Source: Chthoniobacterales bacterium
GTDB lineage: Bacteria > Verrucomicrobiota > Verrucomicrobiia > Chthoniobacterales > UBA10450
Assembly: GCA_036502465.1 (NCBI GenBank)
Contig: DASXYO010000163.1
Span: 1-58,081, forward strand
Direction of reading: 5' to 3'
Length of the DNA: 58,081 nt
Shown: piece by piece, positions 5,369 through 53,931 of the stretch
Position numbering within the stretch: position 1 is the first letter of the stretch
Layout of the letters: each line of letters begins with the position of its first letter
The notes under the pieces: model-generated
What the model saw: only the letters and a program-made list of their open reading frames with translations
The model's database searches: none
What the model was told of the DNA's origin: nothing
Program-made: the position numbers and the translations under genes

Positions 5369-5426
5369 AGGGCCATGAGGTGTCGCCCTTCATTCCTTCG
5401 GGAAATGGGAGCGCGCCGCGTCCTCC

Positions 5427-5560: not shown

Positions 5561-5562
5561 AG

Positions 5563-6654: not shown

Positions 6655-6670
6655 CGTCGCAGGAGACTCT

Positions 6671-6805: not shown

Positions 6806-6855
6806 AGAAAAACTGCGACGCGCTGCGGGAAACATCACGTCCCCTTAACGAATTT

Positions 6856-9966: not shown

Positions 9967-10187
9967 AGCATCATGCTTCTCCCGCAAGAGCGCCTGGCCC
10001 TTTCCTAATCCATAAAAAAGTGAAGCCGATAGCCAAGTGTGACGCGAAAGACAAGTGGCGCACGGAGAACGCCGAGAGAGAATGAAACGTTAATTGGGGT
10101 GGGAATGAAAACTTCTTCCGTCTTTCTTTTGGGGATGATCGCGGGTGAGCCGCGCGGAACCTGACGCCGAGGGCGAGAAAAGCTTTC

Positions 10188-13765: not shown

Positions 13766-13784
13766 AAAGCATCTCGACAGAACT

Positions 13785-13947
13785 CCGGGGAGCACAGGCC
13801 GCTGGCCTGTTGGTTTTGGCGGCCCGCCAAAACACGCTTCCAAAACGGTGGTCCGAAGTTTCGATCTCCGCATTGGCAAGAAGCGTCGCAGGAAGTTCGC
13901 GAAGGCGGGCCGCCTTCGCCAACAGGCCAGCGGCCTGTGCTTCCCGG
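13785..13947. mobile_element. MITE-like palindromic element B (related architecture to A1/A2), in the actB-actC spacer
   Basis: About 29-nt terminal inverted repeats (CCGGGGAGCACAGGCCGCTGGCCTGTTGG ... CCAACAGGCCAGCGGCCTGTGCTTCCCGG). Inner hairpins GTTTTGGCG-gcc-CGCCAAAAC and CGAAGGCG-ggc-CGCCTTCG. Confidence 0.8.
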
Positions 13948-13955
13948 AAAAAGGC

Positions 13956-28344: not shown

Positions 28345-31167
28345 ATGTCCTTCCGCAAACGTCTTGTCGTTTTCCTGCTCTTCGTCCTCGTGGCCGGAGC
28401 GCTCGACGCGCTCTTTGCGCCTTTTGTCATCGCGCACGGCGTGCGCTGGTGGATTGAGTGGGCCGCTCAGCGCCAGGGATTGTCGGCGGAGATCGAGCAG
28501 GTCGATGCGCCGTTTCTGCGCCCCGTCACGATTCGGAATCTGTCGTTCGAGCCGGGCATAAAAACGGAGCACCAGATATCGTTAGGCATTAGCACTGCCA
28601 CGATCGATCTAAATCTGCGGGGCTGGCTTTTTCGAAAAGACGCAAACCTGCTGCACTCCGTCCGCCTCGCGCGGGTGACCGGGAAGATTCAGATGCCGGT
28701 CGCGCCTGTCGTGGCCGCCCGGCTGGATTGGCGTCCGTGGTCGCGTCTCCTGCCTGATGAGATTCAGGTCAATGACCTGAATCTCGACGTGGCGAGCGGA
28801 GCAACGGCGGTCAGCCTGCGCGGGATCTTGCTGACCGCGAGCTCAATAGAATCGGGCAGGTTTTTCGCCCGCGAGATTTACGTGACGGCTCCGCTCTTGC
28901 GCCAGACATTCAGCAACCTGCGCGGGGCGACTTCGTGGGAAGGTTCGCGCCTAACGATTGCCGGAATCCCGCTGGCCCGCGGCCTTGACCTCGAGGTGCT
29001 CACCTTCGATCTCTCGCGCCTCAGCAAACGTCGGCTCGGGATCGATCTCCAGCTGGATACTTACGGCGGGACTTTGCGCGCCAGTTTTCAGGGCCGCGGC
29101 GGCGAGAAATTTTCCATCGATCTGGCCGGCTCCGCGGCCAACATTTCGCTCGCGCAAATTTCCAGCGCGATGGGTTTTCTCGAGCCGGTCACCGGCTCGG
29201 TGCGCGCCTCGAAATTTACTTTTCGCGGGAACCCTGGCGAATTTCTGAACGCGACCGCCTCCATCTGGATGGAAGTAGCCGACTTCGCCTGGCGGGCGCG
29301 GCGCGCGGAGAGCGTGATGTTCGGTGCGACCTATTACGACCGGCGCCTCGAGGTGGATCAACTCTACGTCCGGCAGCGCGAGAATGAACTGACCGTGAAT
29401 GGCGAACTGCTTTGGCCGAAAAAGCTGAAGAGCTGGGCGCAGCTGCCGTTCCGCGGGCAGATCAACGCGACGATTCCCGACCTCAACGGTTTCGCGCAAT
29501 TGTTCGGTGCGACGACCGGCGATTTTTCCGGGGCGTTGACGGCCAAAGGCGACGTTGATCTGGTCAATCCGGAAGCGGCGGGCCGCCTCGCCTGGAATGG
29601 ACAGGGAGTGACTTTTCGCGGAGTGGCGCTGGAGTCGTTAGGCGCGTCGATTCAGTTGCATGGCCGCGAGGTTGTTTTGGAAAATCTGGAGGCCCGTCAC
29701 GGGGAAGATTTTCTGCGCGGGCAGGGAAGCATCGAACTGACGGCGGGACATCGATTTTCCGGTCGCCTGACCGGCGCAATCGCCGATCTGGGAGTTTACG
29801 CGCCGCTTCTTCCCTCGGAATGGCGCGCCGGGAAAATCGGCGGCGGAGCCACCTTTGACTGGCGCGGGGACGGAACCCTGGCCGCGCACTCCGGCACGGT
29901 GCAGCTTTTCGCACACGGGCTGCAACTGCCGGTCGCTCCCCTCCGCCGGCCGCTCGATCTCATCCTCGAGGGAAGTTATTCGCCGCGGGACATTTTTTTC
30001 CGCACTTTCAGCCTGGCGAACGATCATTTCTCGTTAGGCGGATTTCTCATGCTGGGGAGCAATTTCATCGAACTCCAGACCTTCGAATTGCTGCTCGACG
30101 GGACGCGCCGCGCCAGCGGAACACTTTTTCTTCCCTTCAGCTTCGAGCGCTGGCGAACGACGCGGAGCTGGCTGGCGGCGTTCGATGAAGAGCAGAAGTT
30201 CGATGTCGATCTCGCGCTCGATCATCTCGATCTCACAAAGCTGGGCAGCGCGGTTGGTGAGTCGTTAGGCAGCGGAATTCTCGATGGCAAACTGGCTGCG
30301 TTTGGCCTTCTCGGTGGCTTGCAGGTGACGACCGATTGGCGCCTAAAGAATTTCGGAGCGACCAAGAGCCCTAATGCGATGGACTTTCACGGACGACTCG
30401 ATGGCGGGCGAATGGAGTCACAGACGACGGCGACATTTGGCGTTTCTGACCCGGTTAGTGTCTACGCTTCCTTGCCCTTATTGCTCGGGAAGAAACGTAT
30501 GGAATCTGGAGACTGGATTGATCCGGCGGCTTCTTTGTCCGCCAATCTCGATTTTCCGGCGCTTTTTCTCGAGACCCTGCCTAACGACTGGCGAATCGGC
30601 GACGGGCGTGGATTGGTGACAGGCCATATTTCCTGGACCGGTAAATTTCCGGCTCCGACGATCAGCGGAGAGGCGGACATCGTGAACGCGGCTTTCCAAC
30701 CGCCGCCGCCCTGGCCGGAAGTGTCCGCGCTTCGAGCGCATGTCCTGTTCACCGACTCGGTCGCCCGGATTGATTCTCTGCGCTGCGAAGTCGATTCAAT
30801 TCCCCTCGATCTGCGAGGCCGCTTCACGACTAATTCGACAGGATATGCCCTGACTGTTTCCCCGGTTAACGGGCGAGTCGAGTTGCTTAGTCAACCGTCC
30901 GAAGGCGCTACGCTCTCAAGCGTGCGGGTGCTCGGTGGCGGCCGGAGTGAGGGGCAGCCTTTGCTGCGGGAGGCACTTGTCCGCGGGACCGTCTTGCCGT
31001 CGGCACTTAGTGTAACGGTGAAAAGCGGCTCCAAATCTGGCGAGACTGTGTCCCAAGCAACCTATTTCGCGCCGTCTCGCCTAACGAATGGTGGCCCACT
31101 CCTGATCCGAATCGTATCGCCAGAAAATTCCCCCGGACTGGAACTTGGCGGTCCCGAACGTCCCTAG
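28345..31167 (+). CDS. Large (940 aa) membrane-anchored hypothetical protein, possibly AsmA/TamB-like
   Basis: N-terminal TM anchor (LVVFLLFVLVAGALDALFAPFVIA), followed by a long beta-rich, Gly/Leu-rich region without catalytic motifs. The functional call is an inference from architecture only. Confidence 0.45.
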   Translation: MSFRKRLVVFLLFVLVAGALDALFAPFVIAHGVRWWIEWAAQRQGLSAEIEQVDAPFLRPVTIRNLSFEPGIKTEHQISLGISTATIDLNLRGWLFRKDANLLHSVRLARVTGKIQMPVAPVVAARLDWRPWSRLLPDEIQVNDLNLDVASGATAVSLRGILLTASSIESGRFFAREIYVTAPLLRQTFSNLRGATSWEGSRLTIAGIPLARGLDLEVLTFDLSRLSKRRLGIDLQLDTYGGTLRASFQGRGGEKFSIDLAGSAANISLAQISSAMGFLEPVTGSVRASKFTFRGNPGEFLNATASIWMEVADFAWRARRAESVMFGATYYDRRLEVDQLYVRQRENELTVNGELLWPKKLKSWAQLPFRGQINATIPDLNGFAQLFGATTGDFSGALTAKGDVDLVNPEAAGRLAWNGQGVTFRGVALESLGASIQLHGREVVLENLEARHGEDFLRGQGSIELTAGHRFSGRLTGAIADLGVYAPLLPSEWRAGKIGGGATFDWRGDGTLAAHSGTVQLFAHGLQLPVAPLRRPLDLILEGSYSPRDIFFRTFSLANDHFSLGGFLMLGSNFIELQTFELLLDGTRRASGTLFLPFSFERWRTTRSWLAAFDEEQKFDVDLALDHLDLTKLGSAVGESLGSGILDGKLAAFGLLGGLQVTTDWRLKNFGATKSPNAMDFHGRLDGGRMESQTTATFGVSDPVSVYASLPLLLGKKRMESGDWIDPAASLSANLDFPALFLETLPNDWRIGDGRGLVTGHISWTGKFPAPTISGEADIVNAAFQPPPPWPEVSALRAHVLFTDSVARIDSLRCEVDSIPLDLRGRFTTNSTGYALTVSPVNGRVELLSQPSEGATLSSVRVLGGGRSEGQPLLREALVRGTVLPSALSVTVKSGSKSGETVSQATYFAPSRLTNGGPLLIRIVSPENSPGLELGGPERP

Positions 31168-34148: not shown

Positions 34149-34252
34149 CCTAACGATAACAGGAAAAGACAAGAGCGGAGCCGCGAATGACTGCGCGGCC
34201 GAAACTCTCTCCGCCTCTCCGGCGTTTGACAAGAACGGATCTCGCCTAACGA
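34149..34252. repeat. Two direct CCTAACGA motif copies in the nuclease-smc spacer
   Basis: Exact copies at 34149 and 34245. The second contains the minus-strand TAG stop of smc (34246-34248). Confidence 0.9.
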
Positions 34253-37200
34253 CTGGCGGCGAGATTTTCCGTGGCGTCGTTCAGCTCGAGCGGCTTCTGC
34301 TGCGCCGGCGCCTGTTCGCGCGCGGGCAGACTTTCGCCCTCAGGCTTGGCGGCGCTGAGGCGCATCCCGACAAGGCGGCTGATGCCACGTTCTTCCATCG
34401 TCACCCCGTAAAGAATATCGGCTTTCGCGATCGTCCGTTTGTTGTGCGTGATGATGATGAACTGGCTCTGCGCGATGAAGCGATCGAGCATCTTGATGAA
34501 GCGGTTGATGTTCGATTCGTCGAGCGGCGCGTCCATTTCGTCGAGGATGCAGAACGGACTCGGCCGCACCATGTAGATGGCGAAGAGGAGTGCGACGGCC
34601 GTCATCGTGCGCTCGCCGCCGGAGAGAAGCGAGACGCTCTGCAATTGTTTGCCCGGCGGCTTGGCGATGATGTCGATGCCGCAGTTGAGCGCGTCGTTCT
34701 CGTCGAGGAGCGCGAGATCGGCGCGCCCACCACCGAAAAGCTCGGCGAACATTTCGCGGAAATTGATCCGCACCTGCGCAAAAGTTTCGGCGAAAAGTTT
34801 CTCCGTCGTCTGGTTGATGCGGGCGATGACGTCGAGCAACTCGCGGCGCGAGTTCGTTAGGTCGGCATTTTGGGTTTCGAGGAAAGTGTGGCGCTCTTCC
34901 AGTTCGTCGTACTCATGGACGGCGTCCAGATTGACCGGTCCCATCGCGTCGAGCTGGCGAGTGAGTTGTTCGATGATTTCGCGGAGCTGCGCTTCGTCGA
35001 ACTCGGCGGCTTCCTCTCCGGCCGTTTCCGCTTCGGATTTCCCACGCTGTTTGGTTTGCGCGCGGTAAGTCTTGGTGAAGATGTAGCGATCGGGAGAAAA
35101 CTCGCGCAGGTCGACCTGGTAGCGGCGTATGACGTGCTCGGCCAGGTTCTCCATCTTGAGCTGCATCTGGGTTTGGCGAACCTCTTCCTTGCCGCGCGCA
35201 TCGTGCAGTTCGCTCAGGGCTTTGCGGCGATTGCGCAGATCCGCTTCCAGGTTGTTTACTTCCGTCAGGCGTTCGGCGCGCCGAGCTGCGATTTCTGTCA
35301 CGGCCAATTCCGCCTTGCCGAGTTCGCCGCCTTTTTCCTCGATCGCGCGTTCGGCTGCCAGCGTCTCCGTTGTCTGCTGCTCGCGGCGCGCCTGGTAGCT
35401 CGCGATGTCCGACCGGCGCGAAGCGAGGAGCTCGGCCAGCTCCGCCTGGCGCGCGGTCATCGGCTGGCGCTGGGTTTGCAACCCTTCGTGGCGCTGACGT
35501 TCGGTCGCAACCGCGAGCCGCAGCTCGTTCAGTTGCTCGGCCAGTTCGTCGTCACGCAGACGAGCAGCCTCAGTTTCTGACTGTAAGGCAGCTTGTCGTT
35601 GGCGCGCTTCTTCCAGGAACGAACGTTGCGTAGCCGCTTCGCCTTCCAACTGCTGCACACGCTCGGCGGAGCTGGCCAGTTGCTGGTCGAGAGTGGTGCG
35701 CTCCCATTCGAGGGCGTCCACTTTCCGCCCGACTTCGTGCACCTCGCGCTCGATTGCCGTGATCTGCGAAGTTGCCGCCGAATGCGCGCCGCGCGCCGCC
35801 TGATGCTGCTCGCGGACTCGCTCGAGGCGTTCGGTCTTTTCCGTTAGGCCACTTTCGATTTCTTCCCGGCGGTTTTGCAGGTTCCGTCGGTCGTCCAGCA
35901 ACGCGCGATGCTCCGTCGCGAGCGCGGCGATCTGTACCTTGCGCGCGAAAAGAGAACTGTTTTCCTCGTTTACCCGGCCGCCATAGATCACGCCCTTGGC
36001 GGAAATCAGGTCGCCCGCGATGGTGGCGAAGGCGAGGCCGGGAAAATCCCGTTTCAATTTCTGCGCCTGGTCGAGATCGGACACGAGAACGACTTCGCCT
36101 AACAAATGCCTAACGAGCGCTTCGAGCTCCGCGGGGGCGTGGACCTTTTCGGTCGCCCAGGCAAGGGCGCCGGGCGGGAGTTCGCCTGCGGTCGCCGGAG
36201 TGGCGGCGCTCAACTCAGGCACGATGAGGGCGGTTTGGCCAAGCTTACGGCTCGAGACGGTGGCGATGATCTCGCTCGCGAGCTCGGAATTCTGCAGGAC
36301 GATCGCGTGCAGGTTGCGTCCGAGGGCCGCCTCGACCGCCGGGATGAATTGTTCCTCGACCTCAATGAGCGAAGCCAGCGCGCCCGTGAGCGCCGGCAGG
36401 ATGCGGGACGGATCGTCGAGGCCGCGCAGGATCGCCTGCGAACCTTCGGTCAGGCCTTCGCCCTCGGCGTTCAGTTGCTGCAAAATCTCGAGCCGGGATT
36501 GCCGTTCGGCGATCGCGCGATCGCTCGTGATGAGCGCCGTTTCGGCTTCGCGCAGTTGCTGCTGTTGCCGGCTGAGCTCTTCTTCCGCGGCGGGAATTTG
36601 CGCCGCCAGGTCCTGCAACGCGTTGTGCTGTTCGTCCGCGCTTGCCTTGCTCGCGGAAAGTTGATTCGCGACCCGATCGCGAGCGCTGGATGCTTCGCCT
36701 AACGACGCCGCCAACTCCGCGAGGCGCGGCTCGGTCGCGGCGCGGCGGGAGACAGTCCCGGCGATCTCCGCTTCCAGGTCGGCCAGCCGGTTCTCCGCCT
36801 TCGAAATGGCGAGCTCGATCGTCTGCAATTCGCGCTCGCTTTCCTCGCGTTCGCGTCGCACTTCGGCGGCGTGGGTGTTGAGTTCCGCGAGTTCGGTTTG
36901 TTTCGCGGCCAGAAGGCGCTCGGTTTCGGAAAGGAGCAGGTCGGTGTCGTGAATTTCTGTTTCCTGCTGCGCGAGTTTGCCTTCGGTGGTCGTGATATCG
37001 AGCTCGTAACGCTCAATCAGGGTGCTCAGCTCCTGTGCTCGTTCGCGGTTGAATTCGATCCGGTTGCGATGCGACGCGATCTCGTTTTGCAGCCGCTGCA
37101 CTTCGGTGCGCGCGGCGTTGATCTGCGTATCGACTTCCTCCAGGCGGCCGCGGTGGGCCGTGACTTCGTTTTCCTGTTCCTCGATCGCGCTCTCGGTCGT

Positions 37201-37968
37201 GCGCTGGTCTTCGTCGAAACGGGCCGTGGCACTTCGTGAGCGCTCCATTGCCGCCTCGAGCAAATCGAGCTGGGCGCGAGAATGATGCGTGTCGAGCACT
37301 TGCAAATCGGCCATCAGCACCTGGTAACGGCGAGCCTTGCCAGCCTGGCGTTGAAGCGAACCGATCTGGCGTTTCACTTCCTTGATGATGTCGCCCAGGC
37401 GCAAAAGATTGGCCTCGGTCGCCTCCAGCTTGCGAAGCGCTTCCTTTTTTTGCCCCTTGTATTTCGTGATGCCGGCGGCTTCCTCGAACACCGAGCGGCG
37501 ATCTTCCGGGCGCGAGCTGAGGATCTGATCGATCCGGCCCTGTTCCATCATCGAATAAGCGCTGCGCCCGATGCCGGTGTCGGCGAAAAGCGCCTGGATG
37601 TCTTTCAAGCGGCAGACATTTTTGTTGAGCAGATATTCCGAATTCCCGTCGCGAAAAACACGCCGGCTGACCCGCACCTCGTGCCAATCGACACCAAGTT
37701 CCTGCGAGCAGTCGGTAAACGTGAGCGAAACCTCCGCGTAACCAACCGGCTTGCGGTTGTCCGTGCCGTTGAAAATGACGTCGGCCATTTCGCCGCCACG
37801 CAACGCCTTGGCCGATTGCTCGCCGAGGACCCAACGAACGGCGTCGAGGACGTTGGATTTGCCGCAGCCGTTAGGGCCGACAATGGCGGTTACGCCCTCG
37901 TGAAAGTTAAAGACGGTTTTGTCGGCGAAGGATTTGAAGCCGAAGAGCTCGAGCGATTGGAGATGCAT
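34246..37968 (-). CDS. smc: Chromosome partition protein SMC
   Basis: N-terminal Walker A (MHLQSLELFGFKSF..GPNGCGKSN), a long coiled coil with a hinge, and a C-terminal signature/Walker B (LSGGERTMTAVALLFA; FCILDEMDAPLD). Start set at the internal ATG at 37968 rather than 38013. Confidence 0.9.
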   Translation of the reverse strand: MHLQSLELFGFKSFADKTVFNFHEGVTAIVGPNGCGKSNVLDAVRWVLGEQSAKALRGGEMADVIFNGTDNRKPVGYAEVSLTFTDCSQELGVDWHEVRVSRRVFRDGNSEYLLNKNVCRLKDIQALFADTGIGRSAYSMMEQGRIDQILSSRPEDRRSVFEEAAGITKYKGQKKEALRKLEATEANLLRLGDIIKEVKRQIGSLQRQAGKARRYQVLMADLQVLDTHHSRAQLDLLEAAMERSRSATARFDEDQRTTESAIEEQENEVTAHRGRLEEVDTQINAARTEVQRLQNEIASHRNRIEFNRERAQELSTLIERYELDITTTEGKLAQQETEIHDTDLLLSETERLLAAKQTELAELNTHAAEVRREREESERELQTIELAISKAENRLADLEAEIAGTVSRRAATEPRLAELAASLGEASSARDRVANQLSASKASADEQHNALQDLAAQIPAAEEELSRQQQQLREAETALITSDRAIAERQSRLEILQQLNAEGEGLTEGSQAILRGLDDPSRILPALTGALASLIEVEEQFIPAVEAALGRNLHAIVLQNSELASEIIATVSSRKLGQTALIVPELSAATPATAGELPPGALAWATEKVHAPAELEALVRHLLGEVVLVSDLDQAQKLKRDFPGLAFATIAGDLISAKGVIYGGRVNEENSSLFARKVQIAALATEHRALLDDRRNLQNRREEIESGLTEKTERLERVREQHQAARGAHSAATSQITAIEREVHEVGRKVDALEWERTTLDQQLASSAERVQQLEGEAATQRSFLEEARQRQAALQSETEAARLRDDELAEQLNELRLAVATERQRHEGLQTQRQPMTARQAELAELLASRRSDIASYQARREQQTTETLAAERAIEEKGGELGKAELAVTEIAARRAERLTEVNNLEADLRNRRKALSELHDARGKEEVRQTQMQLKMENLAEHVIRRYQVDLREFSPDRYIFTKTYRAQTKQRGKSEAETAGEEAAEFDEAQLREIIEQLTRQLDAMGPVNLDAVHEYDELEERHTFLETQNADLTNSRRELLDVIARINQTTEKLFAETFAQVRINFREMFAELFGGGRADLALLDENDALNCGIDIIAKPPGKQLQSVSLLSGGERTMTAVALLFAIYMVRPSPFCILDEMDAPLDESNINRFIKMLDRFIAQSQFIIITHNKRTIAKADILYGVTMEERGISRLVGMRLSAAKPEGESLPAREQAPAQQKPLELNDATENLAASR

Positions 37969-38077
37969 GTTGGGACCTCTGGCGTGCATACAGCCACGAC
38001 CGGAGGCTGACAAGCAAAATAAACGCTATTTAGAGGGGCCGGGAGACAGGCTCGCACAAGATATGGTATGCCGGGCG

Positions 38078-45080: not shown

Positions 45081-45293
45081 CTAGAAAGTGAGCGCCTGCT
45101 GGCGCCCATCGGGTCCGATGCGAACCCGGACACAGGCATCGCTCGGATCGCGTCCTGTGTGATAGCGCTGCCATTCGGCCATCGCCCTCGTCCTTAGCTT
45201 GGCGTAGCTCTGGTCCAGCGCCCGCTGCAGTCCCTGCGCTTCCCTGCTTGTCGCGTTCTCCGCCCCGTTTGTCCTTCGCGCCAACGTTTTCAT
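45081..45293 (-). CDS. Possible small hypothetical protein (70 aa)
   Basis: ATG at 45293 within a 385-bp spacer, divergent from the hem operon. There is no homology evidence and it could be spurious. Confidence 0.25.
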   Translation of the reverse strand: MKTLARRTNGAENATSREAQGLQRALDQSYAKLRTRAMAEWQRYHTGRDPSDACVRVRIGPDGRQQALTF

Positions 45294-45384
45294 GTCGGAA
45301 GTCGAAAAGCAGGAAGCGCGCCTACCTCGGTCGGACCTGAACTCGGATTGCCAAGCGGCATGCCGCCTTTTACCTTCGAGACCG

Positions 45385-46176
45385 ATGGATCGCTCGCTCC
45401 TGATCATCTCAACGCTCTTTTTTTTCCTCGCCATGGTCCGGACGACGATCGCGATCAGGGCGCGTAGTTATCGAGCGGCCGGCTTCAATTTTTCCACCAT
45501 TGCGCTCGGGTTTGTTTTCCAGACAGCTTTCCTCTCGGTCCGTGGGCACGCGCTGGGACGCTGTCCGCTGACGAATCTCTTTGAAGTTTTTGTCTTTCTC
45601 GCCTGGTCGGTTTCGCTCATTTATCTGCTTATCGGACCGGCCTACCGGCTCTCGCTGATGGGGGCATTTACGGCGCCTTTTGTTTTTGTTCTCCAGGGAT
45701 TTGCTCTCCTCGCACCGATTGACGTGCCGCATCCCCCAGGCTCTTCGCCTTCACCATGGCTGGAAATACACGCCTCGGTCTCGCTCATCGCCTACGGGGC
45801 CTTCGCCCTCGCCTGCGTCGCAGGTCTCATGTATTTGCTCCAGGAGCGCCAGCTCAAGTCGCGGCAGATCAATTCCATGTTTTATCATTTTCCCCCACTG
45901 ACGGATCTTTTCGCGGCTATCACCCGGCTGCTCTGGCTCGGATTCATTCTCCTGACGCTCGGGATCGCAGCCGGGTTTCTGACCGGACAACCGCTCCCGT
46001 ACGTGAAAATCGCCTGGTCGTTAGGCGTGTGGACGTTCTACGCGGCGATTTTGCTCGCGCGTCACCTCCGTACAACTGCGCCGCGCCGGATCGCGACGCT
46101 TTGTGTTCTAGCTTTTAGTGCCGCGCTTACGCTACTCTGGGGCATCACGTTTCTTGCGCAGACCCACGCGCTCTGA
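45385..46176 (+). CDS. Cytochrome c assembly (CcsA/HemX-like) membrane protein preceding hemA
   Basis: Polytopic membrane protein with a CcsA-family-like pattern. Its stop overlaps the hemA start (TGATG). Start set at the ATG at 45385. Confidence 0.7.
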   Translation: MDRSLLIISTLFFFLAMVRTTIAIRARSYRAAGFNFSTIALGFVFQTAFLSVRGHALGRCPLTNLFEVFVFLAWSVSLIYLLIGPAYRLSLMGAFTAPFVFVLQGFALLAPIDVPHPPGSSPSPWLEIHASVSLIAYGAFALACVAGLMYLLQERQLKSRQINSMFYHFPPLTDLFAAITRLLWLGFILLTLGIAAGFLTGQPLPYVKIAWSLGVWTFYAAILLARHLRTTAPRRIATLCVLAFSAALTLLWGITFLAQTHAL

Positions 46177-47240
46177 TGAATCTCTTCTGCGTTGGCCTCA
46201 GCCATCACACCGCAAATGTCGAAACGCGCGAACGTTTCCTCGGGCACGCCGCGATCGATCGCGTATTGCGTGAAAAAGTGGGATGTTCGGAGGCGCTTTT
46301 CCTTACCACCTGTAATCGGGTCGAAGTCTACGCTGCGGCCGAGCAACCGATCACGACGCAACGGATCGCGCAGTGCCTGCTCGCAGAGGGCATGATGCCG
46401 GAGGACGATCAAATGGGGGCCTTCTATCGCCATGAAGCGCAACAATGTGTGCAGCATCTTTTCCGGGTCGCGTCCGGGCTCGACTCGATGGTGATCGGCG
46501 AGACCGAGATTCTCGGGCAGGCCAAGAAGGCTTACGAAGCGGCGCGGGAATCCGGCGCCGCGGGGCCATTTTTGCACCGGCTTTTCCAGCGCGCCTTTCG
46601 TGTCGCGAAGCAGGTTCGCACGCGGACCGGGATCACGCGCGGGGCGGTTTCGATCGGGTCGGTGGCGGTGGATCTGGCGGAACAAATTTTCGGGCACTTC
46701 GAAACGCGCCGAGTGCTTCTGCTCGGCGCGGGCGAAGCAAGCGAGCGGACCGCTCGTGCGCTGGTCAAGCGCGGGGTGCGCGACATTCGGGTCACAAATC
46801 GTTCGCCGGAGCGAGCGGAGGCGCTCGCGGCGCTTGTCGGCGGACGCGCGGTGGCGATGGAAGAATGGGAGATCCACTGTCGCGAGGTCGACATCCTCAT
46901 TTCATCGACCGCTTCTCTCGCGCCGATCGTGACCTGTGAAAATCTGGCGCCGCTTTTGCATAACCGCCTCGACCGGCCGCTTTTTATTATCGACATCGCC
47001 GTCCCGCGCGACGTGGCACCGGAAGTCCACGACATGGAAGGCGTTTTTCTTTACGACATCGACTCGCTGCAATCGATCGCGCAGCAATCCCTCGCTTTGC
47101 GCCGGCAGCAGGTCGCGGCCGGCGAGGAGATCATTGCCCGGCACGTCGAAGATTTTAGCGGTTGGTTCGCTTCGGCGCGGGGACGGAGATTGAATCCGCC
47201 CGGAATAAGCGACTCGGCATTGCGCGCCTCGGAAAGCTGA
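46176..47240 (+). CDS. hemA: Glutamyl-tRNA reductase
   Basis: N-terminus (GLSHHTANVETRERF; TCNRVEVY) and NADPH Rossmann motif (VLLLGAGEASERTA). Confidence 0.9.
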   Translation: MNLFCVGLSHHTANVETRERFLGHAAIDRVLREKVGCSEALFLTTCNRVEVYAAAEQPITTQRIAQCLLAEGMMPEDDQMGAFYRHEAQQCVQHLFRVASGLDSMVIGETEILGQAKKAYEAARESGAAGPFLHRLFQRAFRVAKQVRTRTGITRGAVSIGSVAVDLAEQIFGHFETRRVLLLGAGEASERTARALVKRGVRDIRVTNRSPERAEALAALVGGRAVAMEEWEIHCREVDILISSTASLAPIVTCENLAPLLHNRLDRPLFIIDIAVPRDVAPEVHDMEGVFLYDIDSLQSIAQQSLALRRQQVAAGEEIIARHVEDFSGWFASARGRRLNPPGISDSALRASES

Positions 47241-48149
47241 GTGGGCGCTCCGGAGAGAATTGTGCTCGGATCGCGTGGAAGCGATCTCGCGCGGAGACAA
47301 ACGCGGATGGTCGAGGAGGCCTTGCGCAAGGCCTGGCCCGAGTTGGAAATCGCGCTCGAGATTATCCGCACGAGCGGCGACGAGGGAGGCGGTCCGGTGG
47401 TGGCCGATCGAAAAGCCGGGCGCAAGGGCATGTTCACGCGGGAAATCGAGCAGCAGCTTCTCGTTAGGCGAATCGACCTCGCGGTGCACAGCGCGAAGGA
47501 TCTGCCGAGCGAGCGGATGGACGAACTGGAAATCGGCGCAGTTCTTCCGCGCGGCCCGACTGGGGACGTGCTGATCGCACGAAATGGATTATGCCTAACG
47601 ACTTTACCGACCGGCGCGGTAGTCGCGACCGGGAGCATCCGGCGTCAGCGGCAACTGCTCTGGAAACGGCCGGATCTTGAAGTGGCAGATCTGCGCGGCA
47701 ACGTGCCGACTCGGTTGCGCAAGCTCTGCGAGAACGAAAATTGGAGCGGAATCATCCTGGCCCGGGCAGGTCTCGCGCGACTCGGTCTGGAACCGGAGAT
47801 GGAAATTCTCTCGCCCGACGACTTTGTCCCGGCTGGTGGCCAGGGCGTGATCGCGCTTCAGACCCGGCGCGACGACGAACGCGTGCACCGGTTGCTGGCC
47901 CCGATTGATGACGAGCCGACCCGGCTTTGCCTCCATGCGGAGCGTGAATTTTTGCGGCTTTTGGACGGCGATTGCGATTCGCCGGTCGGAGTGCACGGCC
48001 GAATGATCGATGGGAAGTTGCACCTCCAGGCGCAGGTTTTTGAAGAAGAAATTGCGGCGCCGCGCATCGGTATCGTGACGGGTGCGAGTGGTCAACCGGA
48101 AGCGCTGGCCGCCGAATTAATGGACAAACTTTATGGCAACCAAAATTGA
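47241..48149 (+). CDS. hemC: Hydroxymethylbilane synthase (porphobilinogen deaminase)
   Basis: HemC pattern (LGSRGSDLARRQ; DLAVHSAKDLP; RGNVPTRL; CDSPVG cofactor Cys). GTG start directly after the hemA stop. Confidence 0.9.
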   Translation: MGAPERIVLGSRGSDLARRQTRMVEEALRKAWPELEIALEIIRTSGDEGGGPVVADRKAGRKGMFTREIEQQLLVRRIDLAVHSAKDLPSERMDELEIGAVLPRGPTGDVLIARNGLCLTTLPTGAVVATGSIRRQRQLLWKRPDLEVADLRGNVPTRLRKLCENENWSGIILARAGLARLGLEPEMEILSPDDFVPAGGQGVIALQTRRDDERVHRLLAPIDDEPTRLCLHAEREFLRLLDGDCDSPVGVHGRMIDGKLHLQAQVFEEEIAAPRIGIVTGASGQPEALAAELMDKLYGNQN

Positions 48150-49656
48150 ACCCGGGCGTTGTTACCTTGTCGGCGCAGGTCCTGGTGATTTCGGATTGGC
48201 GACTTTGCGCGCGAAGCAACTGATCGAACGGGCCGAGGTGGTGGTTTACGACTACCTCTGCAATCCCGAGATGCTGCAGTGGGCACCGGAAACGGCCGAG
48301 ATCATTTACGCTGGGAAAAAAGCCGGCGCGCACACCCTGAAGCAGGAGGAGATCAACGCCCTCCTGGTTGAAAAAGCGCAGGCCGGCAAACTAGTGGTTA
48401 GGCTAAAGGGCGGCGATCCGTTTCTTTTCGGACGCGGCGGTGAAGAAGCGCAGGCTTTAGTTGCTGCTTCCATTCCGTTCGAGGTCGTGCCGGGGGTGAC
48501 TTCGGCGATTGCTGCGCCGGCTTACGCAGGCATTCCGGTAACGCATCGTGGAATGACCTCGCACGTCACTTTTTTCACTGGCCACGAGGATCCGGAGAAA
48601 ACGGAGGGCTCGCTCAATTTCGAGGCGCTCGCAAAATTGGGCGGAACCCAGGTGATGCTGATGGGCGTCGAACGGATCGACGCGATCGCGCAGCAAATGC
48701 GAGAGCACGGTGTCCGCGCGGATCTGCCGGTGGCCTTGATTCGCTGGGGGACGACCGGGCGACAGGAAACGATCCGCGGGACGCTGGAGGACATCGCGCA
48801 GAAGGTGGCGGAACAGAATTTCGCTCCGCCTGCGGTGGCGGTCTTTGGCGAGGTGGTCTCGTTAGGCAAGGAGCTGGACTGGCGCAAGGCGCAGCCACTG
48901 ACCGGGAAACGGATCGTGGTCACGCGGACCCGAAAACAAGCCGGCATCCTGAGTGAGCAACTGCGCGATCTCGGCGCGGAGGTGATCGAGTTGCCGACCA
49001 TCCGGATCGAACCGCCGACCGATCTGCGCGCTTTCGCCGAGCTGGTGCAGGATGCGCACGGCTACGACTGGATTGTCTTCACCAGCCCGAATGGGGTGAC
49101 GGCGTTTTTTGAGATGTTCTACAAACTTTACGACGACGCCCGCGACATCGGCGGGGCGCGAATCGCGGCCATCGGGCCGGCCACGGCGCAGCGGGTGCGC
49201 GAGTTTCATCTCAAGGTCGACCTACAGCCGGATGAGTTCGTGGCCGAGGCAGTGGTGCGTGAATTCAAGAAGCAAGGCGACATCGAAAATCTCCGAATTC
49301 TCATCGCTCGGGCGGAAGAGGCGCGAGACCTGCTACCAAGGGAGCTCGGAGCCTTGGGAGCCATAGTGGATGTTGCTGTTGCCTACCGAACGGTCGCCGA
49401 GACAAGCGATCGGACGGAAGCAAGATCGCGACTGGTAGCCGAGAGCGCGGATATGATCACCTTTACAAGTTCATCGACGGTCGAAAACTTTCTTGCCCTG
49501 GGCCTGCCCTGGCCGGCCGGGATGGAAGTGGCGAGCATCGGCCCGATTACCTCGAAGACCGCGCGCGATCGCGGCCTAACGATCGGGGTGGAGGCAAAAC
49601 GGCACGATATTCCCGGACTGGTGGAGGCGATTCGCCGCCATTACGGCAGGGATTGA
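48133..49656 (+). CDS. cobA: Fused uroporphyrinogen-III C-methyltransferase / uroporphyrinogen-III synthase
   Basis: N-terminal SUMT motifs (LVGAGPGDFGLATLRA; RLKGGDPFLFGRGGEE) followed by a HemD-like C-terminal half (about 250 aa). Confidence 0.85.
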   Translation: MATKIEPGRCYLVGAGPGDFGLATLRAKQLIERAEVVVYDYLCNPEMLQWAPETAEIIYAGKKAGAHTLKQEEINALLVEKAQAGKLVVRLKGGDPFLFGRGGEEAQALVAASIPFEVVPGVTSAIAAPAYAGIPVTHRGMTSHVTFFTGHEDPEKTEGSLNFEALAKLGGTQVMLMGVERIDAIAQQMREHGVRADLPVALIRWGTTGRQETIRGTLEDIAQKVAEQNFAPPAVAVFGEVVSLGKELDWRKAQPLTGKRIVVTRTRKQAGILSEQLRDLGAEVIELPTIRIEPPTDLRAFAELVQDAHGYDWIVFTSPNGVTAFFEMFYKLYDDARDIGGARIAAIGPATAQRVREFHLKVDLQPDEFVAEAVVREFKKQGDIENLRILIARAEEARDLLPRELGALGAIVDVAVAYRTVAETSDRTEARSRLVAESADMITFTSSSTVENFLALGLPWPAGMEVASIGPITSKTARDRGLTIGVEAKRHDIPGLVEAIRRHYGRD

Positions 49657-49660
49657 TGGA

Positions 49661-50329
49661 ATGAGCGAGGCGATCGAAGTCGACGCAGATTTTGGCACCG
49701 CGATGCACGAACTAAGTGCGGAAGCGGTCACGCCTCCGTCCCGTCGGAAAGAGCCCGAGCCTTCCGCCACGACGGCGCTGATCGGCGCGGTCTATTCCTT
49801 GAATCAGCGGATGGAGGCCCTCGAGGAATCGATGCTGCGAAAATTCGAGTCGATTCATTTTGAAAAAATCGAAGAGCAGCTCGCGGTCATCCGCGACAGC
49901 GAAACGGTGAACCAGAAGCTGTTCGATTCGCTCCACCAGGAATTGATCAGCTACCGCGATAATTTCGTCCGCGATGCGCTGCAGAAGCCGTTCATTCGCG
50001 ATCTGCTGATGCTTTTCGACGACCTGAGCGCGCTGGCCGACCAAATGGGATCGACGGCGGAAAAGGAAAGCAGCGATGGGGCGCAAACCCGCTCGCTCGA
50101 TAACCTGACCAACGTTCTCCATTTCGTGGTCGAGATCCTGCACCGTCTCGAAGTGACCGAGATCGAAGTGAAGGAGAGAGTCGATCGCACGCTGCATCGT
50201 GTGATCAGCTTCGAGCCGGCTGAGTCGGCGGAGGAAGATGGCCTCATTGTGAAGCGGCTGAAGCGCGGCTTTATCTGGCAGGACCGGACGCTGCGCGCTG
50301 AAGAAGTCATCGCGAAGCGGTTCCAATAA
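49661..50329 (+). CDS. GrpE-like nucleotide-exchange-factor homolog (divergent)
   Basis: Long helical region with a GrpE-like pattern (LHQELISYRDNFVRDALQKPFIRDLLMLFDDLSAL). C-terminal beta domain pattern (VKRLKRGFIWQDRTLRAEEVIAKR). Lies directly upstream of an Hsp70 paralog. Confidence 0.55.
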   Translation: MSEAIEVDADFGTAMHELSAEAVTPPSRRKEPEPSATTALIGAVYSLNQRMEALEESMLRKFESIHFEKIEEQLAVIRDSETVNQKLFDSLHQELISYRDNFVRDALQKPFIRDLLMLFDDLSALADQMGSTAEKESSDGAQTRSLDNLTNVLHFVVEILHRLEVTEIEVKERVDRTLHRVISFEPAESAEEDGLIVKRLKRGFIWQDRTLRAEEVIAKRFQ

Positions 50330-50459
50330 TTCCGCCCGCGCGGTTGCTCTGCACGAGGGGAAAAAAAGTTCCCGCAGAATTTGAAACGCCGGAGGCATGA
50401 AAACTGCATTGAGTTGGGCGCAGTCAAGAAATGGCAATTCAGGGAAACCTTCAAAGCAC

Positions 50460-52022
50460 ATGAGCAATCGCAAAGCAGTCGGAATCGATCTCGGCACTAC
50501 TTTCTCGGCCGTCGCCCATATCGACGCCTACGGGAAACCGCAAATCATCCCCAACGCGGAGAGTGAGCGAATCACACCGTCCGTCGTTCTCTTCGATGGC
50601 AGCAACGCCATCGTCGGCACGATCGCGAAGAACAACACCGTCGCGGAACCGGAAAAGATCGTCGACTTCGTCAAGCGCGAAATTGGAAAATCGAAGGAGC
50701 AATTTAATCGCGAGTTCAGCGGGACCAAGTATTCGGCGGAGGAACTTTCCGCGCTCATCCTGAAAAAGCTGAAGTCGGATGCGGAAAAATATCTCAAGGT
50801 GCCGGTGACCGATGCCGTCATCACGGTCCCGGCTTACTTCAACGATGCCGAGCGGACCGCCACGATCACCGCTGGCCGGCTCGCCGGATTGAACGTTCTG
50901 CAAATCATCAACGAACCGACGGCCGCCGCGCTCGCTTACGGCTTGGACAAGCTGGATGACGACCAGACGGTTTTCGTGTTCGATCTGGGCGGCGGCACTT
51001 TTGACGTCACGCTCATGCGGATCGAGGGCCATCGCCTCGAGATGGTGGCGACAAACGGCGATCACCGACTTGGGGGCAAAGATTGGGACGACATCATCGT
51101 CAACCACGTCGCGGAAGAATTTGATCGCGCGCATGGCGAAAATCCGCTGCTCGATCTGCAAAGCTACCAGGATCTGCAAAGCCGCGCGCTGGCCGCAAAG
51201 ATCCAGCTCTCGAGCCGCGACCGGACGACGATCGTGCACAGCCACAACGGCAAGAGTGTGAAGATCGAGATGACCCGGGAGCAATTTGAAAAAATGACCC
51301 GGCACCTGGTCGAGAAGTGCAAGGCGATCTGCGACATCGTGATGCGCGAGGCCAAGATGCAATGGTCGGAGGTGGACAAGATCCTTCTTGTCGGCGGCAT
51401 GACGCGCATGCCGATGGTGCGCGAGATGATTGCCCAGCTCACGTCCGTGCCTTTGGCCGAAGACGTGAACCCCGACGAAGCCGTCGCAGTCGGCGCCGCC
51501 ATCCAGGCGGTCCTCTCACTCCTCAACGAAGAGGAGACGACCGGGGAAAAAGTTCTCCCGTCGGAAACGCGCCAGCAATTTTCTTCCCGCGAAGGCGGCC
51601 TCATCCAGGTGCGGAACATCACCTCGCACACACTCGGAGTGGTGCTCTGGGATGAAGCCCATCTCGAGGAATACGTCTTCCCGATGATTAAAAAAATGAC
51701 CGCGATGCCGGCGGTCGCGAAGAATTCCTTTGGAACCGCGACGGCCAACATGCAGCGCGCGATCGTGCGCATCGTCGAAGGCGAAAGCACCCTGCCGCAG
51801 GAGTGCACGCCGCTCGGGATCTGCGATGTCGAGCTGCCACCTTTTTTACCGAAAGGTTCCCCGGTTGAATTGACCTACGAATATAACGCCAACCAGGTCC
51901 TCGAAGTTGCGGTGGAAGCCTGCGGAAATTCCGCTTCGGTTTCAATCGAGCGCAAGACCGGGCTCTCGGAGGCAGAACTCGGTCGCGCAACGGCAGCGTT
52001 GGGGCAATTGAGCGTCGTCTGA
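50460..52022 (+). CDS. Hsp70-family ATPase, short form without the C-terminal helical lid
   Basis: Actin-fold/Hsp70 motifs (GIDLGTTFSAVA; DLGGGTFDVT; NEPTAAALAYG; LLVGGMTRMP). About 520 aa from the ATG at 50460, compared with about 640 aa for DnaK. Confidence 0.85.
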   Translation: MSNRKAVGIDLGTTFSAVAHIDAYGKPQIIPNAESERITPSVVLFDGSNAIVGTIAKNNTVAEPEKIVDFVKREIGKSKEQFNREFSGTKYSAEELSALILKKLKSDAEKYLKVPVTDAVITVPAYFNDAERTATITAGRLAGLNVLQIINEPTAAALAYGLDKLDDDQTVFVFDLGGGTFDVTLMRIEGHRLEMVATNGDHRLGGKDWDDIIVNHVAEEFDRAHGENPLLDLQSYQDLQSRALAAKIQLSSRDRTTIVHSHNGKSVKIEMTREQFEKMTRHLVEKCKAICDIVMREAKMQWSEVDKILLVGGMTRMPMVREMIAQLTSVPLAEDVNPDEAVAVGAAIQAVLSLLNEEETTGEKVLPSETRQQFSSREGGLIQVRNITSHTLGVVLWDEAHLEEYVFPMIKKMTAMPAVAKNSFGTATANMQRAIVRIVEGESTLPQECTPLGICDVELPPFLPKGSPVELTYEYNANQVLEVAVEACGNSASVSIERKTGLSEAELGRATAALGQLSVV

Positions 52023-52023
52023 G

Positions 52024-53625
52024 ATGCTCAATCCGGTCAGCTTCCCGATTCCGTTGCCGGACGATCCGCGCAAGTGGGACGGCTGGAGCCGCTATAATTC
52101 GCCCGACCCGTACGAGCGGCTCTGCCTCGATCCGCAGACCAATCCGAGCAACGATCTGATCGAAGAGCGCTTTCGCGAGCTGCTCTTGTGGTGGCAGAAA
52201 AAGCTCCCGCTCAAAAATCAGCCGAGCAATCCGCTCGCCCAGCTGCTCCGTTCCGGGCTCGATGAATCTTCCCGCTTCCTGACCGAGGCGCGGGTCGAGC
52301 TGCTCAACCCCGAGCGGCGCCGAGAGCTCGACAACGAACTAGCCGCCCAGGCCGAGCAGCGAGCGATCGCGGAGTTCCACAAATACATGACGTTCGCGCT
52401 GAACGACAAAACCCTCTCGCCTCAGGAGGAGGACACGCTCCTGGCGTTTGGACATCAGCACGGGCTGAAAGACGAGCGGATGTTCGAGCTGATCGAGGCG
52501 GAATTGCTGAAGTGCGGGGCCGTCCGCGTGACGCCGCCTCCCCCGCCGGCGTTGGCCGAGGCTGTCGTGGAAAAGGTCGCCACCAATCTCGATCCGAACG
52601 AGGATTTCATGCGGATGTTGCGGCTGAGCGGGCTTGACGCCGACGAGATGACCGACGACCAGCGCGACGCGTTTGTGAATATGGCGGAAAATCTCGGGAT
52701 TGACCCGGGCGACGCCGAGGATTTGGTCGATCTCTACCTGGAAGAGATCGAAGAAAAATCGGCCCCTCCGCCGAAGCCGGTCGTAGTGGTCGCGCCGAAG
52801 GCGCCGGTCGTTTCGACTAACGGCGCGAGCCCGGCGCCGGTCGCGAGAGCCGTTACCGCGGTCGATATCGCAGCGGAGCGAGCTCGCTTCGCAAATTTTA
52901 CGAGCAGCATTGGCGCGCAATTACTCCTCGTTCCGTCGGGAAGTTTCGAGATGGGAAGCGAGGCGGCCGACTCTGCGCCTAACGAACGGCCGATTACTCC
53001 CGTCACTCTGACCCGCTATTACCTCTCCCGCTTCCCGATCACCAACGCGCAATACGAATCATTCGATCCCAGCCACCTTCGGAAAAGGGCGCCGGGGGCG
53101 GGCGACCAGCATCCGGTCGTTTACGTGAGCAGCACCGACGCGATCAAGTTTTGCCAATGGCTCAGCTCGCGCGATCGCCGCCGTTACCGGCTCCCGACCG
53201 AGGCGGAGTGGGAGTATGCCGCGCGCGGCGCGGACGGACGCAAATATCCGTGGGGAAGCCAGGAAGGCCGCGGCGACCTCGCAAACTTCGCCGACCGCAA
53301 CACGGTTTTTGCCTGGAGCGACCGCGAGATTGATGACGGCTATGCCGAGAGTTCGCCGGTGGGATCGTTTCCGCTGGGGGCGAGCCCTTTCGGGATGGAA
53401 GACATGGCGGGCAACGTCTGGGAATGGTGCCTGGACTTTTTCGAAGCTTACCGGGGAACTCCGAAGATGAACCCTCGCGGAGCTGTCTCTGGGTTGAAGC
53501 GAATCTACCGCGGCGGCAGCTGGAAATCGCGTTTCAACAGTCTGCGGACGACGACCCGGGGTTCAAACGTGCCGAATTACACCTGCAACGATCTTGGATT
53601 TCGGATCGTCTGCGAATGCGAATAG
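52024..53625 (+). CDS. Multidomain protein: degenerate J-like domain (no HPD) + helical repeats + Pro-rich linker + FGE/SUMF1-like domain
   Basis: N-terminus is J-like (DPYERLCLDP...IEERFRELLLWW...ARVELLNPERRRELDNEL) but has no His-Pro-Asp. C-terminus has FGE-sulfatase motifs (RLPTEAEWEYAARG; GNVWEWC; YRGGSW). Its start lies 1 nt after the Hsp70 stop. Confidence 0.7.
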   Translation: MLNPVSFPIPLPDDPRKWDGWSRYNSPDPYERLCLDPQTNPSNDLIEERFRELLLWWQKKLPLKNQPSNPLAQLLRSGLDESSRFLTEARVELLNPERRRELDNELAAQAEQRAIAEFHKYMTFALNDKTLSPQEEDTLLAFGHQHGLKDERMFELIEAELLKCGAVRVTPPPPPALAEAVVEKVATNLDPNEDFMRMLRLSGLDADEMTDDQRDAFVNMAENLGIDPGDAEDLVDLYLEEIEEKSAPPPKPVVVVAPKAPVVSTNGASPAPVARAVTAVDIAAERARFANFTSSIGAQLLLVPSGSFEMGSEAADSAPNERPITPVTLTRYYLSRFPITNAQYESFDPSHLRKRAPGAGDQHPVVYVSSTDAIKFCQWLSSRDRRRYRLPTEAEWEYAARGADGRKYPWGSQEGRGDLANFADRNTVFAWSDREIDDGYAESSPVGSFPLGASPFGMEDMAGNVWEWCLDFFEAYRGTPKMNPRGAVSGLKRIYRGGSWKSRFNSLRTTTRGSNVPNYTCNDLGFRIVCECE

Positions 53626-53733: not shown

Positions 53734-53931
53734 TTACGACGGGTTAAAACGAAACTTGGCGCGTCCCCGCTTGGCATTGGCTTTCGCCTTGCGACGGGTC
53801 TTTTGCGAAGGTGTTTCGAAGGCACGCAAGCGGCGCACCTCTTCCAAAATTCCTTCGGCGTCCAGCTTGTTCTTAAGCCGCTTCAAGGCCCGGTCCACTG
53901 GCTCACCTTTACGAACGATCACTTCTGGCAT
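53734..53931 (-). CDS. rpsU: 30S ribosomal protein S21
   Basis: MPEVIVRKGEPVDRALKRLKNKL...RAFETPSQKTRRK is typical of S21. AGGAG lies upstream of the start on the minus strand. Confidence 0.9.
   Translation of the reverse strand: MPEVIVRKGEPVDRALKRLKNKLDAEGILEEVRRLRAFETPSQKTRRKAKANAKRGRAKFRFNPS

Follow-up and report, generated by a model that had tools for sequence, protein, structure and literature searches.

A Chthoniobacterales locus that joins a lidless Hsp70 to a GrpE-like protein and an HPD-less J-like/FGE-fold protein as a candidate dedicated Hsp70 machine

We analyzed a 58,081-nucleotide stretch of DNA from a Chthoniobacterales bacterium (contig DASXYO010000163.1; hereafter the window) in which three genes on the same strand encode a GrpE-like protein, an Hsp70 paralog that has no helical lid, and a 533-residue protein, here called P3, that combines a J-like domain lacking the His-Pro-Asp (HPD) tripeptide with a domain that has the fold of the formylglycine-generating enzyme (FGE). 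This triad appears to be a specialized Hsp70 machine that has not been described before, and neither a duplicate for the stress response nor a phage-defense island. From the sequence comparisons and predicted structures described here, we assign a probability of roughly 45% to the reading that it is a lineage-restricted, dedicated Hsp70 machine of the Chthoniobacterales core genome that works by the mechanism proposed below. An earlier description of the window, made from its letters alone (the sequence-only reading), had called the three genes tightly packed, and the open reading frame (ORF) map agrees: 4 nt separate the stop codon of a cobA/hemD fusion gene (49654-49656) from the ATG of the 222-residue ORF at 49661, 130 nt separate the grpE-like and hsp70 genes, and 1 nt lies between the end of the Hsp70 ORF (52022) and the start of P3 (52024). 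The positions of all features are collected in Table 1.

The Hsp70 paralog matched the Pfam HSP70 profile with an E value of 1e-127 over profile positions 1-508 of 599, leaving positions 509-599 unmatched, and it failed both NCBI DnaK equivalog models (NF001413 and TIGR02350; 431 bits vs. a cut-off of 648, and 426 vs. 822.6). When the protein was aligned with E. coli DnaK by MAFFT, its C-terminus fell at about DnaK residue 522, within a stub of helix A, and lid helices B-E and the tail were absent. The catalytic residues D8, K70, E171, D194 and T199 were all kept in an alignment with DnaK and HscC. Pfam coverage and alignment together confirm the earlier description of an approximately 520-residue Hsp70 that has the nucleotide-binding motifs and ends past the beta substrate-binding domain without lid or tail. 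The order of its parts is a nucleotide-binding domain, an insert of about 20 residues, an altered interdomain linker (IQVRN in place of DnaK VLLLD), the beta substrate-binding domain and the helix A stub. Aligned to E. coli DnaK, the protein lacks approximately residues 84-103, the D211 loop and approximately residues 286-291, and it has a glutamine at the position of R167, a residue that contacts the J domain. In the DnaK-DnaJ complex, R167 pairs with the aspartate of the HPD motif. Overall, the paralog is 35% identical to DnaK (298 bits) and 32% identical to HscC (218 bits). The longest Hsp70 ORF begins at 50397 (541 residues) and an alternative start lies at 50460 (520 residues). We consider the start at 50460, and with it the 130-nt gap, to be correct because orthologs and independent gene calls place the start at MSNRK/MTNRK, which yields 520 residues, and because the ATG at 50397 falls within a promoter-like motif that is conserved.

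The sequence-only reading had also proposed that P3 begins with a J-domain-like region from which HPD is missing, and profile comparison supports this. When a profile of the P3 N-terminal module was compared with a J-domain alignment using hhalign, P3 residues 28-107 aligned with J-domain positions 5-70 (probability 94.8%, E 5.5e-8), placing the P3 segment KKLPLKNQ on KYHPDKNQ and hence LPL at the position of HPD. This LPL sits in a loop, WWQKKLPLKNQPSNP, that is invariant among 30 homologs down to 44% overall identity. The PDB matches of the same profile were almost all J domains (best E 2.6e-4), and the Pfam DnaJ model (PF00226) was matched directly by 4 of 16 family members, all of them distant (best E 1.2e-5). 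P3 of the window itself gave no Pfam DnaJ match, FGE-sulfatase being its only Pfam match, and no Pfam or NCBIfam model covers its residues 1-290. A model of full-length P3 yielded only FGE-fold matches in Foldseek, and residues 1-169 were modeled apart with AlphaFold2 (AF2; mean predicted local distance difference test, pLDDT, 93). The first 27 residues are non-helical in the AF2 model, and P8, P10, P12, D13, P15, W18, G20 and W21 within them are invariant in the 30 homologs down to 44% identity. Pfam identified no G/F region, zinc finger or DnaJ C-terminal domain in P3, in keeping with the earlier remark that the set has no zinc-finger DnaJ.

Past the J-like domain, P3 contains two acidic helical modules, the second of which is conserved in homologs. 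They had been described as repeats; both are helical in the AF2 models, and their relationship was detected at the profile level only (hhalign E 1.4e-4), with BLASTP finding nothing between them. The module next to the J-like domain (P3 residues 96-156) gave a weak match to the PADLOC family PDC-S48 (E 2e-6 with full-length P3), which recurred in 8 of the 16 family members with a best E of 5e-5. The first helical module also matched TerB very weakly, and a literature search on PDC-S48 found nothing specific.

The proline-rich linker and FGE/SUMF1-type domain of the earlier description were recovered as well, the former as a low-pLDDT segment and the latter by a strong Pfam match (Table 1). Further support for the fold came from PDB sequence matches at 1e-27 and from Foldseek matches to PvdO, ToxD and FGE. 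The catalytic copper-binding cysteine pair (human C336/C341) is absent, as LCHESYC of Thermomonospora curvata FGE aligns with a gap followed by KSRFN, and it is likewise absent from all 30 aligned P3 homologs. This rules out a role as a formylglycine-generating enzyme. All three proteins lack membrane segments and signal-like hydrophobic stretches (the maximum 19-residue hydropathy of P3 is 0.92), so the FGE-fold domain is predicted to be cytoplasmic. Within this domain C377 is invariant, and P3 ends in a conserved motif, VCEC(E/D) (53605-53625), of which C530 is nearly invariant; these cysteines might mark a metal site or a disulfide.

The 222-residue protein scored above the Pfam gathering threshold for GrpE (PF01025; E 6.4e-12, 45.9 bits vs. 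a cut-off of 25.8) across almost the entire profile (positions 11-162 of 165), which upholds its earlier designation as GrpE-like. It missed the cut-offs of all NCBIfam GrpE equivalogs, the best score being 34 bits vs. 176, and a PDB sequence search with this protein alone returned nothing relevant. Its orthologs are 45-84% identical and occupy the same position in 70 of 70 scorable loci. The start codon of this gene is uncertain: Met15 at 49703 is an alternative, many orthologs are 207-208 residues long and cover 93-94% of the query, and a start at 49703 would widen the gap to cobA/hemD from 4 nt to 46 nt. None of the three proteins passes an NCBIfam cut-off. With the DnaK and GrpE equivalog cut-offs missed, and the lid, HPD and the zinc-finger and C-terminal domains of DnaJ absent, the triad differs from a housekeeping dnaK-dnaJ-grpE set, as the sequence-only reading had stated.

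To place the triad in a wider genomic context, we searched 185,579 species genomes for the P3 N-terminal module, found 348 loci and scored synteny on the best 80 of them, all of which came from Chthoniobacterales or Verrucomicrobiota metagenome-assembled genomes (MAGs). Among 1.84 billion protein representatives, the module formed 184 clusters at 50% identity. The names of the best homologs (Chthoniobacterales, Spartobacteria or Verrucomicrobiota) place the window in that lineage. The order hemA-hemC-cobA/hemD-grpE-like-hsp70-P3 was found in every scorable Chthoniobacterales species genome (68-72, depending on the gene). An hsp70 gene lies directly upstream of P3 in 72 of 72 scorable loci (70 by an automated adjacency check; in the other 2 the gene is fragmented, probably through frameshifts), and cobA/hemD was present in all 68 scorable loci (66 by the automated check and 2 with fragmented matches). 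Downstream of the triad, orthologous loci carry rpsU and secDF on the opposite strand. In a Verrucomicrobiae MAG the triad is intact between unrelated genes. The co-occurrence of the three genes that the earlier description had offered for checking is thus seen in all 70-72 scorable Chthoniobacterales genomes and again where the flanks are different.

The Hsp70 is the most conserved protein of this block, with a median identity of 88.8% across 69 species. The corresponding medians are 82% for cobA/hemD, 78% for hemA, 63% for hemC and 76% for secDF, and, within the triad, 79% for the FGE-fold domain of P3, 71% for its N-terminal part and 58% for the GrpE-like protein. Judged by protein identity, the Hsp70 paralog is more strongly constrained than its housekeeping neighbors, which indicates strong purifying selection. 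Because the module is fixed in the Chthoniobacterales, a widespread soil group, and more conserved than neighboring housekeeping enzymes, it probably matters for the physiology of these bacteria. The MAG BP_754 contains the whole hem-grpE-hsp70-P3-secDF block twice, on two scaffolds (L069 and L070), with near-equal identities to the window. The block may be genuinely duplicated, or the two copies may stem from a mixture of strains or from a binning artefact.

The 130-nt gap before hsp70 contains an element that resembles a sigma54-type -24/-12 promoter, with GG and GC doublets 12 nt apart that match the consensus TGGCAC-N5-TTGCW. The element ends 52 nt before the Hsp70 ATG and predicts a transcription start near 50419. 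In orthologous gaps the motif GGCAYG-N4-YTGCA was strictly matched in 65 of 70 cases and differed at one base in the other 5, always 40-57 nt before the Hsp70 ATG, and the rest of the gap was variable in sequence. The motif is unique in the window (0.15 occurrences expected) and absent from four distant cassettes (L004, L005, L007 and L009). A scan for sigma-70 promoters found no promoter-like site on the + strand. These features suggest that a sigma54-type promoter may drive hsp70 and P3, with the grpE-like gene transcribed from the hem operon; the latter gene is probably co-transcribed with that operon because it starts 4 nt past the cobA/hemD stop codon. The earlier description of the triad as self-contained has to be qualified: hsp70 and P3 have a sigma54-like promoter of their own, whereas the grpE-like gene is joined to the hem operon.

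Upstream of the promoter-like element by approximately 15-45 nt (loop approximately 25-35 nt), RNAfold predicted a hairpin. Orthologous gaps have a hairpin at the equivalent place with different stem sequences, such as GAGAGC-GAAAAA-GCTCTC. No T-run follows the hairpin, terminator-like sites were no commoner than expected by chance in a terminator scan, and Rfam had no family match at the locus. The hairpin is possibly a 3' end structure of the hem-grpE transcript.

Beyond the orthologous loci, distant relatives share the P3 N-terminal module at only about 30% identity and have different C-terminal domains. In these proteins the module is followed by a second HPD-less J-like domain, an Ig-like domain, membrane segments, PEGA, LamG or FGE. 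At eight distant loci (L005, L006, L009, L093 and L094-L097) the gene for the J-like module directly follows genes for GrpE and a lidless Hsp70 of 525-538 residues, and a scan of metagenomes with a narrower alignment gave 5 loci. HPD is absent from every J-like domain of the P3 family and of its distant relatives. At the position of DnaK R167, the lidless partner Hsp70s have Q (window family), A (L005) or G (L009), whereas the arginine is kept by an Hsp70-vWA paralog of the distant loci and by HscC. Because HPD and R167 were lost on both sides in three lineages, the interface is likely to have been rebuilt, not to have decayed. Three of the distant loci (L005, L006 and L093) are four-gene cassettes that encode an Hsp70-vWA fusion, GrpE, a lidless Hsp70 and a membrane protein with two HPD-less J-like domains. 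The fusion comprises a nucleotide-binding domain, a beta substrate-binding domain and vWA in 677-696 residues. The L005 cassette (5548-12310) is flanked by rhomboid and FlgO/CsgG-like genes, and the L093 cassette (3616-9608) has a PEGA protein and, about 3 kb downstream, a TraG/VirD4-like gene.

On this evidence, we propose that P3 may be an adaptor that uses its J-like domain to bind the lidless Hsp70, across an interface that is non-canonical and has co-evolved. One side of this interface would be the invariant loop that stands in for HPD, and the other an Hsp70 surface with Q in place of R167, no D211 loop and a changed linker. The cytoplasmic, presumably non-catalytic FGE-fold domain would bind a specific ligand or client peptide and present it to the lidless beta substrate-binding domain; alternatively, a ligand bound by this domain could gate the Hsp70. 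Without a lid, the Hsp70 should take up and release substrate rapidly, and the GrpE-like protein would reset its nucleotide state. The module would then act as an ATP-driven remodeling or hand-off switch, not as a holdase, with hsp70 and P3 expressed on demand from the sigma54-type promoter and the grpE-like gene transcribed along with the hem operon.

Several observations count against this proposal. A 6-residue deletion in the partner Hsp70 overlaps DnaK residues 290-295, a GrpE-signature motif (Mayer 2021), so GrpE-type exchange on this Hsp70 is not assured. The top Foldseek matches of P3 residues 1-169 were J domains with target-normalized TM-scores of 0.48-0.64, but their E values were 1.5-9. 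An FGE fold without the cysteine pair can still be an enzyme, and NCBIfam labels PvdO a dehydrogenase. Neither the window nor the other loci we retrieved encode an enhancer-binding protein with a GAFTGA motif. Finally, at one locus, L092, neither hsp70 nor grpE adjoins the P3-like gene. This locus (7191-10893 on a 4.5-Mb contig, P0128) encodes a protein whose N-terminal part is 47% and whose FGE domain is 50% identical to P3, and the gene downstream of it encodes a 377-residue protein that starts with a further HPD-less J-like motif, MIDYYEVLQVSPDASEETIDEQYRFLLQAFEADPFED.

We compared the triad with known chaperone systems. Like the Hsp70 described here, E. coli HscC is a specialized bacterial Hsp70; it has private J-type partners, DjlB and DjlC, in which the HPD motif is also changed (to HPE). 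HscC also shares with the window Hsp70 nucleotide-binding domain deletions that affect the D211 loop and a stretch at about DnaK residues 76-101; in the beta substrate-binding domain, loop L1,2 has an insertion in both proteins. However, HscC (556 residues) keeps a shortened lid and R167 and is thought not to use GrpE, and P3 shows no similarity to DjlC. We therefore rejected membership in the HscC subfamily (550-580 residues, shortened lid) for the Hsp70 of the window, which at 520 residues is lidless and nearer to DnaK. J topology without HPD has precedents in Pam16/Tim16 and DNAJB13, where it serves docking or regulation, not classical ATPase stimulation; Pam16/Tim16 is an HPD-less J-like domain used in this way. 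Those proteins belong to other lineages, whereas here an invariant hydrophobic loop is combined with a partner Hsp70 that has lost R167. In the eukaryotic ribosome-associated complex, zuotin has retained HPD, which acts on a further Hsp70, Ssb. The lidless Hsp70 of that complex, Ssz1/HSPA14, is no general chaperone but the fixed partner of one J-type protein (PMC13580251), a relation like the one that we propose for the triad. The complex is, however, eukaryotic and has neither GrpE nor an FGE-fold domain, and homology to it is implied only for the Hsp70 and J folds. Myxococcus xanthus MxDnaK2 (SglK, MXAN_6671) has a GrpE paralog (MXAN_6672) directly upstream in its operon, is not heat-induced and has specialized clients (PMC11019930). 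MxDnaK2 differs in being a full-length PRK00290-type protein that can replace E. coli DnaK and in having no dedicated HPD-less J-like adaptor. Our literature search on the triad itself found nothing specific, and none of HscC, MxDnaK2, Ssz1 or the conflict modules considered below joins a lidless Hsp70, a private GrpE and an HPD-less J-like/FGE adaptor.

We weighed five other explanations of the locus. P3 could itself be the client, an FGE-fold enzyme or metal-binding protein matured by a private Hsp70 and exchange factor in the way that IscU is served by HscA/HscB, with the J-like domain merely tethering the chaperone to the C-terminal domain of P3. Consistent with this idea, hsp70 and P3, only 1 nt apart, are probably translationally coupled and lie behind the same promoter-like element, the FGE-fold domain is strongly conserved and has the conserved cysteines C377 and C530, and the FGE-fold proteins PvdO, EgtB and ToxD are enzymes or enzyme partners. 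Nevertheless, we judge it unlikely, given that the catalytic cysteine pair is absent and that distant relatives keep the GrpE/lidless Hsp70/J-like cassette with the C-terminal domain swapped for PEGA, LamG or membrane modules, which argues that the chaperone part is not tied to the FGE fold.

The lidless Hsp70 could instead be a co-chaperone of canonical DnaK, acting as an Hsp110-like exchange factor or a disaggregation booster. Such a role has been proposed for DnaK paralogs with altered J-binding and substrate-binding parts (FEBS J 2026, PMC13580251), and the changed linker and the loss of R167 recall Hsp110-type divergence. However, the lidless Hsp70 has kept its catalytic residues and its beta substrate-binding domain, and the GrpE-like and J-like genes are always adjacent, neither of which an exchange factor would need. 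On balance, we find this explanation rather unlikely.

A conflict- or defense-type NTPase system had been among the suggestions of the sequence-only reading; in such a system the FGE-fold domain would detect a molecule of the invader. This idea has parallels in the nucleoside triphosphate-dependent conflict systems described by Kaur et al. (eLife 2020, PMC7159879), where genes for an Hsp70, a GrpE and a protein whose J domain is fused to non-chaperone domains are clustered and FGE-type (FGS) domains are proposed as binding modules. The distant cassettes resemble those systems in adding an Hsp70-vWA fusion, one of them lies near a TraG-like gene, and the helical module of P3 weakly matches PDC-S48, a candidate defense family. 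However, the modules of Kaur et al. are centered on a GAP1-N2 GTPase, occur in actinobacteria and firmicutes and include FNIII-repeat proteins, whereas the window locus has no GTPase, vWA protein or effector domain. The triad moreover occupies a fixed core-genome site, flanked in all scorable species by the hem operon and rpsU/secDF, and its Hsp70 is more conserved than housekeeping enzymes. PADLOC-DB 2.0 returned weak matches only (HamA, 0.009; PDC-M61B, 0.0017; and PDC-S48, 2e-6, on one helical module), and the 58-kb window contains no mobile-element genes. We conclude that the triad is probably not a defense system and rate an anti-phage role as very unlikely.

The proximity of the triad to hemA raises the further idea that it serves tetrapyrrole biosynthesis, for example by controlling how stable glutamyl-tRNA reductase or other hem enzymes are or how they assemble. 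The 4-nt spacing from cobA/hemD and the hemA-hemC-cobA/hemD-triad order in 68 of 68 scorable loci are compatible with such a role. We nevertheless view it as highly doubtful, since the neighbors of the triad outside the Chthoniobacterales are unrelated, hsp70 and P3 carry a promoter-like element of their own, and no domain of the triad is known to bind tetrapyrroles. That the triad is the only Hsp70/GrpE set of these genomes, a remodeled housekeeping chaperone, is hardly credible: it would fit the very high conservation and the absence of a canonical DnaK lid or DnaJ from the window and the retrieved loci (less than 2% of a genome), but the distribution is restricted (348 of 185,579 species genomes), a survey of 52 Verrucomicrobia genomes, that of Chthoniobacter flavus among them, found at least one PRK00290-type DnaK in each (PMC11019930 supplement), and in 130 genomes a derived DnaK paralog was never found without a bona fide DnaK (PMC13580251).

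Truncated DnaK paralogs occur commonly in complex bacteria, and what they do is an acknowledged open question (FEBS J 2026, PMC13580251). The locus described here provides a clean test case for them, with one lidless Hsp70, a private GrpE-like protein and a private HPD-less J-like adaptor. The predicted interface (the LPL loop vs. Q167) can be tested by mutation, and sigma54 is the predicted regulatory input. The analysis also defines a previously undescribed J-like N-terminal module that has no Pfam or NCBIfam model, and it suggests a concrete molecular partner for an FGE-fold domain of the orphan, non-catalytic kind, of which there are many. A bolder version of our proposal, which we hold to be unlikely, is that the HPD-less WW...LPL loop and the R167-less, lidless Hsp70 form a new type of J-Hsp70 coupling, a stable, ligand-gated ATP switch under sigma54 control. 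If so, its input would come from the FGE-fold domain or, in relatives, from PEGA, LamG or membrane modules, and the module would stand apart from DnaK, HscA and HscC as a bacterial "sensor-chaperone" class, possibly the ancestor-like core of the Hsp70-vWA cassettes of other lineages.

Table 1. Features of the triad and of its surroundings (positions in the window).
Feature	Position	Strand	Basis or remark
GrpE-like gene, 222 aa	49661..50329	+	Pfam GrpE; ortholog position
Hairpin with A-rich loop, inner stem GGGAA/TTCCC	50348..50378	+	RNAfold; just past the grpE-like stop
Sigma54-type -24/-12 promoter-like element GGCATGAAAACTGCA	50394..50408	+	GG 50394-50395, GC 50406-50407
Lidless Hsp70 paralog, 520 aa	50460..52022	+	Pfam HSP70; DnaK/HscC alignment
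P3, 533 aa	52024..53625	+	ORF map; Pfam FGE-sulfatase; profile comparison
P3 residues 1-27, invariant Pro/Trp-rich segment (F)PxPLPDDPxKWDGW	52024..52104	+	Alignment
P3 residues 28-107, J-like domain without HPD	52105..52344	+	hhalign; PDB profile search; AF2
P3 residues 108-168, first acidic helical module	52345..52527	+	AF2 helices 96-125, 133-145, 150-164
P3 residues 186-246, second acidic helical module	52579..52761	+	AF2 helices 191-202, 211-223, 228-246; conserved in homologs
P3 residues 247-298, Pro/Ala-rich linker of variable length	52762..52917	+	pLDDT <50; length and sequence vary in alignment
P3 residues 299-529, FGE/SUMF1-fold domain	52918..53610	+	Pfam FGE-sulfatase E 1.7e-51
hemA, hemC, cobA/hemD fusion	46176..49656	+	Directly upstream; ORFs and Pfam labels from a related locus
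PqiA and MlaD/PqiB-like protein	23-2517		Core context of the window
Fe-S and NrfD proteins typical of alternative complex III	10844-15356		
Cytochrome oxidase subunit I	19867-21522		
SMC	34246-38013	-	

The remainder of the window (23-38013) consists of ordinary core chromosome genes, which include, besides those in Table 1, genes for a thiamine pyrophosphate (TPP) enzyme, an MR/MLE enzyme and an FAD-oxidase/CCG protein. A 940-residue ORF at 28345-31167 had no Pfam match, and a PHROGs search of the locus gave no informative match. The hem operon upstream of the triad is headed by a gene for a CcsA/HemX-like membrane protein (45292-46176; Pfam Cytochrom_C_asm in the orthologous locus L001), and in this it resembles the hemAXCDBL arrangement of Bacillus. 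Between P3 and secDF, rpsU encodes the 65-residue ribosomal protein S21 on the - strand (53734-53931), and the sole sigma70-like promoter match of the region (54021-53993, - strand) lies just upstream of this gene.

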